Origin: an uncultured Verrucomicrobiae bacterium
GTDB taxonomy: Bacteria; Verrucomicrobiota; Verrucomicrobiia; Chthoniobacterales; JAFAMB01
DNA: 64,000 nt
Direction of reading: 5' to 3'
NCBI GenBank assembly: GCA_963748055.1
Contig: CAVVII010000011.1
Location: 368,915-432,914, forward strand
This document shows positions 1,551-12,894 of this stretch, piece by piece. Both the position numbers and the translations under genes were made by a program. The notes under the pieces were generated by a model. The model worked only from the letters and a program-made list of their open reading frames with translations. It was not told the DNA's origin and searched no databases. Numbering within the stretch: position 1 is the first letter of the stretch; each line of letters begins with the position of its first letter.

Positions 1551-1795
1551 CTAGCCTGCATCGCTCACAAATCCTTAGAGATTTGTGAGCGATGCAGGCT
1601 CAGGCAGCAGAATTCCCCGGCTACGCCGGAAAATTCGACTGCTTTTTAGATTTAGAGAGAATAGTTATGCAACAGTTTGTCTCAATTCATTTATCTAAAA
1701 CAGGCTCTTAAACAGACGCGCAGCGTCTGTTTAAGAGCTTCCTAGCCCGCAATGAGCTCATCGCTTCGACCTTTGCGTGATTTTTGCGGGCTAGG
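1551..1795 (+). mobile_element. MITE-like ~245-bp multi-hairpin repeat, copy A
   Basis: A near-identical inverted copy lies at 12655-12894. Termini CTAGCCTGCA / TGCGGGCTAG form 9/10 terminal inverted repeats. Perfect hairpins at 1554-1599 (20-bp stem), 1704-1738 (16-bp stem) and 1742-1794 (11-bp stem). No ORF of its own. Confidence 0.75.
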
Positions 1796-1992
1796 CGCGG
1801 CGGTTAGAAGCGGACCTTCTGCAATGGACATACCAGAATTTGACTCCGCCTGGAAGAGCTCATCGAAGAAGCCTTTGACCAGGCATGGAAATACTTGCGG
1901 CTGCTTGCGGTGTCTCAATCGAGGATGAGGAATGACACCGATGGGTGTCACGGGTGATTCAGACGGAAGAATGAAAAGGATCGGCTCAGGGT

Positions 1993-2628
1993 CTATGCCC
2001 GAGCCGCCGGCGAACTAAGTACTTCCAGAGCGCGCAAGCCGGCTGCCGTTCGGGTTTCGACGCCCAGCGTGTCGAATATCTCGAGGACATGCTTTTTTAC
2101 TGTGGATTCGGTGTTGCCGAGAATGGTGGCTATCTCGCCGTTGGTTTTGCCTTGGGCAAGCCAGAGCAAAGTTTCCGCGACCCGCGGAGTTAGGCCGAGC
2201 ACTGCTTCCAGGGGTTTTGCAGATTGGAAGTTAGGTTTGAACTCCGGTACTGTTTGTTGAACGGCACGCTCGAGACGCGAGCGGATGGCGGCCAGCAGGT
2301 CTGATTTTGCGACCGGCTTGGTTAGGTAATCATCCGCTCCGAGATTCATTCCGGCGCGTATGTCCGGCTTCTCGCCCCTGGCGGTCAGAAAGATAAACGG
2401 GATAGTGACTGTCTCGGCGTCGGCGCGGAGGGCGGCGATGACGCCGTATCCGTCCAGTCCCGGCATCATCACATCGCAAAGAATGAGGTCGGGCCTTTCC
2501 CTTTTCGCCAGCTCAAGGCCGACGCGACCGTTTTCGGCGGGAAGTGGGTGAAACTTCTCTAATCGGAGAATGGTCGTCAGATTGCGTCGCATCTCCGGCT
2601 CGTCTTCAATGACCAAAATTTTCTTCAT
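1993..2628 (-). CDS. response regulator, REC domain plus LuxR/FixJ-type HTH
   Basis: Most likely start is MKKILVIEDEPEM, whose ATG overlaps the upstream kinase stop as ATGA. The receiver has LILCDVMMPGLDG and a C-terminal GKTNGEIA..STVKKHV HTH. About four-fifths of residues match the paralog at 45776-46411 by manual alignment. Confidence 0.9.
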   Translation of the reverse strand: MKKILVIEDEPEMRRNLTTILRLEKFHPLPAENGRVGLELAKRERPDLILCDVMMPGLDGYGVIAALRADAETVTIPFIFLTARGEKPDIRAGMNLGADDYLTKPVAKSDLLAAIRSRLERAVQQTVPEFKPNFQSAKPLEAVLGLTPRVAETLLWLAQGKTNGEIATILGNTESTVKKHVLEIFDTLGVETRTAAGLRALEVLSSPAARA

Positions 2629-5600
2629 AAATGTATCTCTTCCGCCGCGGATTCTGGGTTCAATATTGGCAGCCATACAGTCACTGACGTACCTTCGCCC
2701 GGTTTGCTATCCACTTTGATCTTGCCGCCGTGCAGATCGACGCATCGCTTTACAATGACGAGTCCAAGACCCGTACCCGGACGTTCACCGACATTACGCC
2801 CCCGATGGAAGGCGTGAAAGAGCCACTCCCGGTCGGCTTCTGGAATTCCAATGCCCTGGTCACGGATGGTACATACAATGTCTGCCTTGGCGAAAACGAT
2901 TTCAAACTGCACTACCCGTCCGGCGTCAGAATATTTCACCGCATTGGTTAACAAATTCGTGAAAATATGCCGCAGCAAGCGCTCGTCGGCCAATATCCTG
3001 TCGGGCATTTCTTCAAGCAAGCATTCGATCGGACATCGCCGATCGGTTGCCGAAAGGACTTCGTCGATAAGTCTTCGCGCGAAAGTTCGCAACTCCAGCG
3101 GCTCGGGCTTGAATTCGATCCTGCCCGCGTCGAAGCTTCCGATGAGCAGGGTTTCTTCCATCAGAGAGGCCATCCGTCGCGTGTTGTTGCGGATAGATTG
3201 GAGATGATCCTTTCGCTCGGCAGGTTCCAACTGGTCGAGGTAGTCATCCAGGATTTCTGCCGAAGACTGGATGATGGCCAATGGCGTGCGGAACTCGTGT
3301 GATACCATTGACACGAATTTGCTTCGCAATTGTCCCAATTCCTTCTCTCTCGCCAACGTGCGAAGCAGCTCAGCCTCCGCCTGTTTGCGCTGTGTGATAT
3401 CAACGGCAAAGACGAGCATATGCGCCTCGCGGTTGATTTCGATCAGGTCGGCCGAGAGCAGCATTGTGTGGACGGTGCCGCGCCGGCTGCGTAGCTGGCA
3501 CTCGACCTCGATCAGCGACCCGTAGCGGTGAAGATCTGTCAGGAACTTCGTGCGATCTTCAAGATTCATCCAGATGCCCAGTTCGCCGGAATCGTGACCG
3601 ACAATTTCGTCATGATTTAATCCAATCCACCGTACGAATGCGTCGTTCGCCTCGATGAACCTTGCGTCGCTCAGTCGCGAAATTGTGATAAGCACAGGGC
3701 TGGCGCGAAATGCCGTGCTGAAGCGCGCCTCACTCTCTCGCAGGCGCGCCTCGCTCTTCCGCAATTCCTCTTCGGCCCGCTTGCGCACCGTGATGTCGTT
3801 GCAAACGGCCTGAAAAAGCTGACGGCTGCCGAGCTGGATGGGCGTAAGGAACACTTCAATCGGCATTTCGGTGCCGTCACGGCGCACTACTACCCATTCG
3901 AAACGAGCGCCGCCAGCGGTCAGCGCGCTGGTAATGTGCTTTTTTGCCAGGACGTCGGCGCTCTCGCCGCCGGGCTGAATTGGTGCGGAGACTTCCGCGG
4001 GATGTTTGCCTTTGACATCGTCCACGCTCGAATAGCCCATATACTTTAACCAGCTTGGGTTCGCCTCCTGGATCCCGTTTTCATCATGCAAAACGGCCGG
4101 CTGGCTGGTGCCTTCGAAGAGCGCGCGGAACTTTTCCTCGGACTTGCGCAACAGGTGTTCCGAAAGCCCGCGATGAGATTCTTCCAACGCCAGGGAAACC
4201 ATTGCCGCCAGCGCTGACGCGAAGTCAATTTCCTCCGCCGACCAATCACGAGCCGGGCCGACGTGCTCGTGACAAAGCACGCCTACGACCTCTCCACGCA
4301 CCCAGACCGGCGCGTCGAGCATCGACGTAATGCCGAGCGGCGCGAGGTAATTGTCCGCCAGTCCGCTCGTGGCCGGGTGCGCCAACGCATTGCCGGCAAT
4401 GACAGGCCGTTCGGCGGCCAACGCCTCAAAATACGCAGGACAATCGGAGGCACCCAGGCGGGAACCTTTGAACTTCTCGTCAATGCTGTTCGTATTGCGC
4501 AGATGTAGGAGTTCACAGGTTATGGCGGAACCGTTTTCCTGCAGCGACCAGTAGCTGACGCGCGCCACATCAAGCGTTGCGGCCGATAGCGAACAAATTT
4601 TTTGGAGTGCTTTGTCTAGATCGGATTTGTCAGACTGCGCAATTTCAAGAAGTACGTCCCTATGTTTCTGCACCTGTTCATTGCGTTTGCGCAAATATTC
4701 TTCCGCTTGCCTGAGCTGTTCGTTCGACCGCAAGAGTTCGTTAGTGCGCGCGGCGACTCGTCTTTCAAGGGAAGCGTTGAGCTGCCGGATTTCTTTCGCT
4801 GCCTGCTTGTGTCCGGAAATGTCGCGCGACACGACAAAAAGCAGGGTCCGTTCACCGAAGGGGACCGCGGTCATCACGATGTCGAGGGGCAACTCGCTTC
4901 CATCGTAGCGGCGGGTCAGCCATTCGAAGCGATGACTGCCCTGGATCAGCGCGAGTTTCACCATCTCCTTGACCTTCTCGCTTGAAAGCCGGCCGTCGGG
5001 TTGGCGCTCCGGCGAGATCTCCGCCGGCGAAGAGTTGCCCAGGGCTTCCCTGTTAGGAGCTCCCGTTTGCCGCACCACCGCATCGTTCGACTCGATGAAC
5101 CGGCCGCTCTGGGGGTCAAAGAGGGACATCGCGTCAGCGCTCCGCTCAAAGAGCGAACGGAATCGTGCCTCGCTCTGGAGCAACGCGGCTTCAGCCTCTT
5201 TTCGCTCCGTGATGTCGCGTGAGACCAATACAAATACAGGGCTGCCGTTGCGCTCGATCGCCGTAGCGTTTACTTCCAGTGGGACTTCCGTGCCGTCAAA
5301 TCGCCGTGCAGTCCATTCGAACCGGCTGTTACCACTTTTCAGCGTTTCCTCGATGCGTCGCGCGACCGATTCCACAGTGGGCGAACCGTCCGGCTGTACC
5401 GGCGCCGAGAGATCTGCTGCACCCTTTCCGACCAGGTCGGCTCTACTCCTGCAACGCATTAGTGCCACCGCTGCCTCATTGCAATCCGCTATGATCGCAG
5501 TGCGTGGGTCGAACAACCAGACAGCATCCGCAGTGCGTTCAAAGAGAAGGTCAAACATCGACTCGGTCTCGTCCAATCTACGGCCATTATTGTTGCACCT

Positions 5601-12449: not shown

Positions 12450-12609
12450 ACCTTGGAATCTGTTCCTAACGAACTGAAAGCGCCATGGTTGGGGTAAGAA
12501 GTCAAGAATACAAGAAATTCTGACTCCCCTTTGCGCGCAGGGGAGGAGCCTTCCAAGCGTGCTACAGCGTTATTGACGTTCGGCGTTTGGTGTTCGGCGT
12601 TCAGCCCTT

Positions 12610-12629
12610 ATCGGAGGATGACCTCCGAT
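12610..12629. repeat. REP-like hairpin ATCGGAGG-ATGA-CCTCCGAT (inverted orientation relative to 11949)
   Basis: Same 8-bp stem as 11949-11968. The flanking CACGCCGCCCCGCCGATACGACGC is the reverse complement of the GTCGGCG-type flank. Preceded by GTTCGGCGTTTGGTGTTCGGCGT. Confidence 0.7.
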
Positions 12630-12654
12630 CACGCCGCCCCGCCGATACGACGCC

Positions 12655-12894
12655 CCTAGCCCGCAAAAATCACGCAAAGGTCGAAGCGATGAGCTCATTG
12701 CGGGCTAGGAAGCTCTTAAACAGACGCTGCGCGTCTGTTTAAGAGCCTGTTTTAAGATAAATGAATTGAGACAAACTGTTGCATACTTATTCTCTCTAAA
12801 AAGCAGTCGAATTTTCCGGCGTAGCCGGGGAATTCTGCTGCCTGAGCCTGCATCGATTACAAATCTCTAAGGATTTGTGAGCGATGCAGGCTAA
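12655..12894 (-). mobile_element. MITE-like ~245-bp multi-hairpin repeat, copy B (inverted relative to copy A)
   Basis: Reverse complement of 1551-1795, differing by a few substitutions, one 1-nt indel and one 6-nt indel. It ends 7 nt from the stop of the permease gene at 12902. Confidence 0.75.

Follow-up and report, generated by a model that had tools for sequence, protein, structure and literature searches.

The Correia elements of Neisseria and the RUP elements of Streptococcus pneumoniae, the latter dependent on IS630-Spn1, are bacterial miniature inverted-repeat transposable elements (MITEs), the BOX elements of S. pneumoniae are modular boxA-boxB-boxC repeats, and composite transposons of the Tn5/Tn10 type consist of inverted insertion sequence (IS) copies bracketing genes. 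With all of these can be compared a 245-bp hairpin-built element present in two inverted copies in a 64,000-nt stretch of DNA (hereafter the window; GenBank assembly GCA_963748055.1, contig CAVVII010000011.1, positions 368,915 to 432,914) from an uncultured Verrucomicrobiae bacterium of the order Chthoniobacterales. Repetitive extragenic palindromic (REP) sequences, the GTAG-tagged palindromic repeats of Proteobacteria, have been reported also in the verrucomicrobium Opitutus terrae (PMC3733652), and definitions are available for REP doublets forming hairpins (REPINs; PMC3337134, PMC3116915) and for bacterial interspersed mosaic elements (BIMEs; PMC2817692). A search of the literature on repeats in Udaeobacter, Chthoniobacter or Verrucomicrobia yielded no description of the present element, only a general survey of GTAG/CGTC REP sequences. 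In its workings the element resembles both the REP/BIME/REPIN systems and bacterial MITEs of the Correia or RUP type, has a modularity reminiscent of BOX, and is neither a strict member of the GTAG REP class nor a proven MITE.

The two copies in the window, A and B, are with a probability of about three in four two independent insertions of one non-autonomous, non-coding dispersed repeat, and the 10.9 kb that they bracket is resident ancestral chromosome in its ancestral orientation, not cargo. Copy A (1551/2-1795, forward strand) and copy B (12655-12893/4, reverse strand) are reverse complements with ~98% identity over aligned bases, the internal differences amounting to four substitutions (five with the first base, C versus T), one 1-nt indel and one 6-nt indel, the latter a tandem duplication of TTTAGA private to copy A; perfect blocks of ~100 nt are shared. 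This identity breaks off exactly at the element termini on both sides, where the two ends, CTAGCCTGCA / CTAGCCCGCA, form an inverted repeat with a single mismatch in its 10 positions. The 23 composites found besides the window copies all have unrelated flanks, and every composite starts with yTAGCCTGCA and ends with TGCGGGCTAG, with variable sequence immediately outside. Aligned copies come from at least nine genomes, the 15 aligned composites from other genomes being 81-89% identical to copy A, so that copies A and B, each of which has private changes, resemble each other (~98%) more than any other copy (at most 89%), a sign of recency. Within the window each of the five modules that make up the element, H1 to H5 (Table 1), is found only in copies A and B, and searches for sub-motifs of H1, H2 and H4 returned 2-4 matches, against 0.00-0.12 expected by chance per window. 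A preliminary description of this DNA had already proposed two near-identical inverted copies with few substitutions and two small indels, a 9/10 terminal inverted repeat CTAGCCYGCA, a construction almost wholly of hairpins and the lack of an open reading frame (ORF), and in these respects it stands: the alignment bears out the pair and its termini, five local hairpins are found, and the ORFs overlapping the element are all of 69 aa or fewer, the longest two (69 and 58 aa) extending into the flank.

Table 1. Positions in the window of the two repeat copies, their hairpin modules (numbered as in copy A) and the segment between them.
Feature	Position	Strand	Description
Copy A, composite H1-H2-H3-H4-H5, 245 bp	1551..1795	+	all five module profile hidden Markov models (HMMs) match here
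Copy B, composite element, 240 bp	12655..12894	-	module profile HMMs match; reverse complement of copy A
H1	1553..1600	+	48-nt near-perfect palindrome AGCCTGCATCGCTCACAAATC-N6-GATTTGTGAGCGATGCAGGCT, 21-bp stem, tag yT (CTAG) before it; copy B: 12845-12892
H2	1604..1647	+	hairpin GCAGCAGAATT..CCGGCTACGCCGG..AATTCGACTGC then T5 run, forward-facing terminator-like unit; hairpin proper 1604-1642, imperfect, inner stem CCGGC/GCCGG; copy B: 12798-12841 (-)
H3	1643..1700	.	AT-rich, weak, poorly conserved spacer holding T-run and A-run of the flanking hairpins; copy B: 12749-12802
H4	1702..1740	-	16-18 bp perfect hairpin, CTGTTTTA after it on the element reverse strand; reverse-facing terminator-like; copy B: 12710-12748 (+)
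H5	1742..1794	+	hairpin CTAGCCCGCAA..31 nt..TTGCGGGCTAG, 11-12 bp outer stem, right terminus; copy B: 12656-12708
Bracketed 10.9-kb segment	1796..12654	.	response regulator, PAS/GAF histidine kinase, small ORFs, UvrD-type helicase, T-poor tract, Transgly_assoc gene (Pfam)

The element belongs to a family restricted to the order Chthoniobacterales (Verrucomicrobiota; the soil 'Ca. Udaeobacter' group). When an exact 20-mer from one H1 arm was scanned against a collection with one genome per species, the matches listed comprised at least 106 stretches from 17 species-level metagenome-assembled genomes (MAGs), among them 43 stretches in JAFAJU01 and 20 in JBAUZZ01. Sixteen of these 17 assemblies are labelled Chthoniobacterales, Verrucomicrobiota or Ca. 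Udaeobacter, and the seventeenth match lies on a Bryobacteraceae MAG contig that is possibly mis-binned. In the H1-bearing stretches listed, the element itself is the only part that matches the window. Viral contigs and plasmids, covered by contig scans and plasmid BLAST, gave no element matches, and in 775 kb from other loci, some of them closely related to the window, there were only one further composite (locus L112) and one H5-like module (locus L107). Instead of only two copies genome-wide with the same sequence conserved in relatives, the case in which the preliminary description would have lost its footing, dozens of copies thus occupy unrelated sites in many related genomes, with 25 composites and over 100 modules that stand alone or in partial units, 17 species-level MAGs being represented, and with differing flanks throughout.

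The 245-bp unit is modular, H1 and H5 being abundant alone and the core being largely a feature of the composite. In a sample consisting of the window and 113 further loci (L-numbered), scanned with profile HMMs of the five modules, H1 is the most abundant stand-alone module with 89 solo copies, followed by 25 complete H1-H2-H3-H4-H5 units (including the two window copies and that of L112), 11 H1-H5 units, nine units of H1-H2 or H1-H2-H3, some of them cut by contig ends, eight solo H5 and a single H1-H4-H5. H4 is almost never found outside a composite in this sample, and the H2-H4 core as a whole is essentially confined to it. The short forms H1-H5 and H1-H4-H5 are internal-deletion derivatives with heterogeneous breakpoints, which join H1 to the last 9 nt of H4, H1 to mid-H5, or H2 to H5, or fuse the H1 loop to the H4 end via AGAG microhomology. 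All of these derivatives have the H1 terminus intact on the left and the H5 terminus intact on the right, the pattern expected if only the termini are needed for propagation. H3 drifts freely across the family, and H1 hardly varies between species in which the DNA of the flanking genes is only 81-85% identical. BOX elements likewise are modular, keep their terminal modules while the internal ones vary, have strong secondary structure and lack coding capacity; they differ in that there is no sequence relationship and in that BOX modules are not abundant solo palindromes with a terminal tag.

Several H1 copies in related MAGs are interrupted at one point, GATTTGT^GAGCGATG, by another family of inserts, a site-specific element using H1 as its target (L054:1665-1850, 170 bp; L058:1913-2200, ~330 bp; L048:1536-1850; L008:7895-8000; L019:5320-6837). 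The insert in L019 is longer and holds a 341-aa ORF with no Pfam match. Some IS elements are known to target REP sequences. Further variants of H1 include one with an additional palindrome in its loop, giving a unit of ~320 bp (L021:3085-3410), and a form centred in another 20-nt inverted repeat (L020:25-115 and L061).

Both window copies sit at gene 3' ends. Copy A lies between a short forward-strand ORF (1317-1526) and a reverse-strand response regulator gene (1993-2676), which are convergent, and copy B begins 7-8 nt past the stop codon (12902-12904) of a BPD_transp_2 permease gene with which it is co-oriented. Across the family the elements are almost all intergenic, and by crude ORF calling the gene end turned towards them is a 3' end in 133 cases and a 5' end in 82. 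Comparison of orthologous sites, which are either empty or differently occupied, shows insertion and turnover at such intergenic positions. In the closest relative, L107, site A carries an IS256-family (Transposase_mut) pseudogene (L107:1400-2760) where the window has copy A, so this intergenic site attracts different mobile elements, and site B is a short diverged spacer; a degenerate H5-like module overlaps the UvrD stop codon of this relative. In L113 there is no element within 200 nt past the orthologous permease stop. In L112, by comparison (permease 98% identical in amino acids, 85% in nucleotides), a composite of 81% identity lies 70 nt past the orthologous stop in opposite orientation, and synteny with the window ends at this composite. 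A solo H1 is present in L081 exactly where L089 carries a full composite plus a further palindromic element. Reconstruction of the empty sites from L107 and L113 yielded no readable target, the intergenic DNA being too diverged or rearranged, and a possible empty site in the comparison of L100 with L104 is ambiguous at only 80% identity. Four further UvrD relatives (L108-L111, 80-84% identical) are not syntenic and so have no bearing on sites A and B.

The arrangement of the copies had suggested that they might delimit a composite or invertible segment, that is, that 1551-12894 (11.3 kb) is a composite transposon or a programmed invertible segment moving or flipping the kinase/regulator-helicase block. 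The geometry permits this, the copies being inverted and near-identical with identical outer termini, and the neighbouring piece 11974-12604, enclosed by the arms of another inverted repeat of 60 nt, has the opposite orientation in L107, which shows that repeat-mediated inversions do occur at this locus; RecA-mediated homologous recombination between the 240-bp inverted copies could in principle invert the segment as well. However, L107 (an ENA contig with a UvrD 90% identical in amino acids) is collinear and co-oriented with window 1190-21366, its genes running in the order response regulator and PAS/GAF kinase (-), small ORFs, UvrD (+), Transgly_assoc, and ABC permease/ATPase operon (-), and it is without either element copy at both boundaries. 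Since the same genes inside and outside the segment have the same order and orientation in the absence of the elements, the block occupies its ancestral position and is no import. The larger ORFs scanned within 1-15.6 kb contain no recombinase, invertase or transposase domain (Pfam), and the GC content of the segment is like that of its flanks. A metagenome scan for contigs joining the outer flank of copy A to either inner flank gave no match, a result that is uninformative on orientation. As in Tn5 and Tn10, a block of genes lies between two copies of a mobile element in inverted orientation, but the flanking elements here encode no transposase and the bracketed genes stand in their ancestral context in the element-free relative, which makes a composite or invertible segment very unlikely. 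It is scarcely credible that the pair is a local inverted segmental duplication that arose without transposition and without mobility of the family, as might be imagined from the fact that copy A has its nearest relative in copy B, and vice versa, at a distance of only 11 kb, because the identity stops at the element termini on both sides and the same termini bound the 23 other composites within unrelated flanks in other genomes. A further reading, raised for a large structured RNA in the preliminary description, takes the element for the gene of such a non-coding RNA or for a cis-regulatory RNA, with the fold as the selected trait. Its minimum free energy is extreme (-131.8 kcal/mol, against -72.0 +/- 4.5 in 200 shuffles; z = -13.2), and both window copies lie within the 3' region of a co-oriented gene. 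In a pairing analysis of 16 aligned composites, with 64 consensus hairpin pairs and 500 shuffles as control, 96.7% of the cells in consensus hairpins are paired and nine cells carry both-sided, pair-keeping changes, a number reached by none of the 500 shuffles, so that hairpin potential is maintained. The opposite strand folds equally well, however, all pairing is in local hairpins, and departures to G-U and to C-A are about equally frequent, which favours neither strand as RNA. Only 5 of the 64 pairs are changed on both sides (20 of 500 shuffles reach 5), all in H2, H4 and H5, among them two pairs with compensatory changes in H2 and the H5 pair 205/251, changed from GC to AU in three copies; H1, the longest stem, shows no covariation and tolerates uncompensated mismatches. 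Two such changes in one H1 arm of copy B, confirmed here, had been taken as an argument for palindromy at the DNA level, an argument that stands for H1 and is weakened by the few compensated changes in H2, H4 and H5. An Rfam search found no family for the element, permissive thresholds giving only sub-threshold miRNA-hairpin noise, promoter-like matches inside it are at chance level, and the modules occur singly, deleted and in both orientations relative to genes. These features make no case for one large structured RNA, a reading that is highly improbable, and the maintained hairpin potential may matter in single-stranded DNA, in protein recognition or in transcripts of either strand.

The terminal modules H1 and H5 of the element both carry an outward-facing (Y)TAGCCYGCA sequence and enclose the terminator-like core. 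In the mechanism proposed, a trans-acting transposase would recognise the tagged terminal hairpins and make copies. For this role a single-copy HUH (RAYT-like) enzyme, serving a system of the REP/BIME type, is tentatively favoured, at a little short of even odds, because the tag of solo H1 is one-ended, no target duplication is demonstrable, tagged hairpins form an inverted doublet, mosaic forms occur and H1 is conserved across species beyond the flanking genes. A classical MITE moved by a TA-duplicating DDE transposase at CTAG, in the style of IS630/Tc1-mariner and with the solo hairpins as minimal derivatives, is the somewhat unlikely alternative, and other mechanisms account for the rest of the probability. 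IS630 inserts at CTAG sites, with TA as the duplicated sequence. Throughout the family the terminal inverted repeat CTAGCCYGCA is conserved, elements abut each other via shared CTAG sites, internal-deletion derivatives keep both termini, and in the 32 two-ended copies the left tetranucleotide is CTAG in 15, TTAG in nine and another in eight, TA thus preceding GCC in 24, and the right one is CTAG in 24, TTAG in six, TTAA in one and degenerate in one, which gives 31 of the three TA-containing forms; all of this accords with a DDE enzyme. Solo H1, on the other hand, is a perfect palindrome AGCC...GGCT preceded in most copies by T on one side and then by C or T (CTA in 31 and TTA in 19 of 84 on the tagged side, any base at that place on the other), its end pairs being (TA,TC) in 36 copies, (TA,TG) in 12 and (TA,TA) in only seven, so that most copies have TA at one end only. 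Within a genome the right tetranucleotide does not vary, and its C/T position covaries with a G/A in the left arm of H5; it therefore belongs to the element and is inherited, not copied from a target; moreover, G follows the right TA in 31 of 32 copies and the base before the left TA is variable. The left yT has the appearance of a preferred flank or of a tag at one end, and by this analysis the asymmetry of the ends resembles tagged REP sequences more than the symmetric footprint of a DDE enzyme. Among neighbouring tagged H1 copies, five pairs have the same and three the opposite orientation, too few to show strand-biased, HUH-like insertion. Several points count against the picture of inserted mobile copies and the function proposed for their core. 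Only two element copies are seen in 64 kb of the source genome, and no transposase adjoining or bounded by H1/H5 termini was found in ~0.85 Mb sampled as 8-kb pieces around H1 copies, which leaves the mobilising enzyme a postulate and the search for a cognate transposase with matching terminal inverted repeats, DDE enzymes included, without a hit. TA stands at both junctions of most composites but at one end only in solo H1, an ambiguous statistic, and the target and any duplication were read from flank statistics. Copies bearing H1-H2 have the same orientation as the upstream gene in 22 cases and the opposite in 16 (crude ORF calling), and the terminator function is deduced from sequence features.

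Further searches for an enzyme concerned the window and 108 to 111 of the loci, in which a tblastn search with an approximate Escherichia coli RayT query for REP-associated tyrosine transposases (RAYTs) gave only noise (best E = 0.17) and a RAYT motif regular expression had no match, a weak negative. No multi-copy coding repeat was found among the sampled loci. Three candidates for a longer parent element or for mobile genes were tried and rejected: a pair of H1 arms in L095 flanks ordinary genes, DruA/IS66-like fragments in L083 represent an insertion into H1, and the ORFs between neighbouring H1 copies are ordinary genes. The MITE-like architecture first proposed for the element therefore holds in part, in that it is non-coding, multi-copy, hairpin-built and bounded by terminal inverted repeats; no target duplication is visible, and no parent IS was found in the ~0.85 Mb sampled.

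The likeness to REP, BIME and REPIN-RAYT systems lies in the short, high-copy extragenic palindromes with a tetranucleotide tag at one end (yTAG here, GTAG there), in their occurrence singly, as inverted doublets with a spacer and as mosaics, mostly at gene 3' ends, and in the combination of no visible target duplication, persistence throughout a lineage and a role as insertion hot spots for other elements. The composite is such an inverted doublet of two outward-tagged hairpins, and the combinations H1-H5, H1-H2 and H1-H4-H5 are the mosaics. It differs from these systems in its CTAG/TTAG tag, which departs from the strict GTAG motif, in the 21-bp stem of H1 and its unit length of 48 nt versus 20-40 nt, in a doublet made of two different hairpins (H1 and H5) plus a 140-bp terminator-like core, and in that the system-defining RAYT gene was not found in the sampled loci. 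Correia and RUP elements share with it a length of 100-250 bp, non-coding sequence, terminal inverted repeats, junction TA and many intergenic copies, as well as long hairpins that can influence how neighbouring genes are transcribed or terminated or how their RNA is processed; here, however, TA is not demonstrably a duplication, the ends of the solo form are asymmetric, and a chain of five hairpins takes the place of one long imperfect palindrome.

The core consists of two convergent hairpins with T-runs, H2 on the forward and H4 on the reverse strand, around an AT-rich spacer. A GC-rich hairpin followed directly by a T-run downstream of a gene has the features of an intrinsic terminator. H2 is followed by T5-6 on the forward strand and H4, on the reverse strand, consists of a 16-bp stem followed by CTGTTTTA; the two H4 copies are the two top-ranked terminator-like matches in window 1-16000. 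Across 16 family members the hairpin and T-run of H2 are kept, with a mean dG of -23.8 kcal/mol (-19 to -29) and on average 4.8 T among the 8 nt that follow, and for H4 the corresponding means are -20.8 kcal/mol and 4.7 T. After insertion into an intergenic site this core would probably act as a two-way intrinsic terminator or as an RNA 3'-end hairpin.

Several other features lie within the bracketed segment or near the copies. A T-poor tract (11531-11909) has only eight T in 379 nt, all of them within 11680-11745, and includes two T-free blocks of 149 and 164 nt, neither of which can hold a stop codon in any of the six frames. It starts exactly where the L107 UvrD gene has its last codon and TAG stop, at the point of overlap with the H5-like module, and the window UvrD ORF consequently extends to 11732 (733 versus 684 aa in L107); the tract ends at CTAG. 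The idea that it is a T-converted copy of nearby DNA was discarded, BLAST after collapsing T to C, A or G giving nothing above shuffles. The inverted piece next to it, ~630 bp with the Transgly_assoc gene (12141-12449) inside window 11914-12656, has both neighbouring genes collinear with L107 and is flanked by the ~60-nt inverted repeat (11914-11973 / 12605-12656, 81% complementary). CTAG stands before each arm of this repeat, each arm has a hairpin GATCGGAGG-N4-CCTCCGATC within, and the right arm lies directly against the inner end of copy B; at 57562 and 60491 there are two diverged copies of the hairpin, and the related loci have none. Beyond copy B, the ABC permease (12902-14096) is split into the overlapping ORFs 12902-13537 and 13260-14096, which correspond to the C- and N-terminal parts of PF02653, where L107 has a single 395-aa gene, pointing to a frameshift that reflects either a pseudogene or a sequencing error. 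The response-regulator/histidine-kinase module (1988-4809) has a diverged paralogue at 43997-46416 (74-79% identical in nucleotides), inverted, 40 kb away and with no element beside it. A third, unrelated MITE-like repeat of ~96 bp occurs at 32617-32712, 33584-33679 and 50402-50497, the copies being 80-82% identical to the reference copy, with terminal inverted repeats of 21-22 bp, GGGGTCGTATCTAAAAATATAA ... TTATATTTTTAGATACGACCCC.

'Ca. Udaeobacter' and related bacteria rank among the most abundant in soil and are known mostly from fragmented MAGs. Many of the sampled contigs end in or beside the elements described here, so a high-copy palindromic family helps to explain the breaks in assemblies. 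The family serves as a lineage marker and also marks synteny breakpoints, and it extends tagged-palindrome repeats of the REP/BIME/MITE kind to Chthoniobacterales. As an unlikely but specific conjecture, the family may be a CTAG-tagged counterpart of the GTAG REP/REPIN systems, kept across Chthoniobacterales by a single-copy HUH (RAYT/TIRYT-like) transposase, the doublet having captured a two-way terminator; if this is true, such a CTAG-tagged REP-like element would be a vertically persistent mobile 'terminator cassette' that the host could exploit to insulate convergent or tandem genes, and if the terminator-bearing doublet is functional, it would provide a natural example of mobile transcription insulators. 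The 10.9-kb block is to be annotated as ordinary chromosome with two repeat insertions and not as a mobile or invertible island, and the element matters moderately for the genomics of abundant soil Verrucomicrobiota and little as a mechanism.

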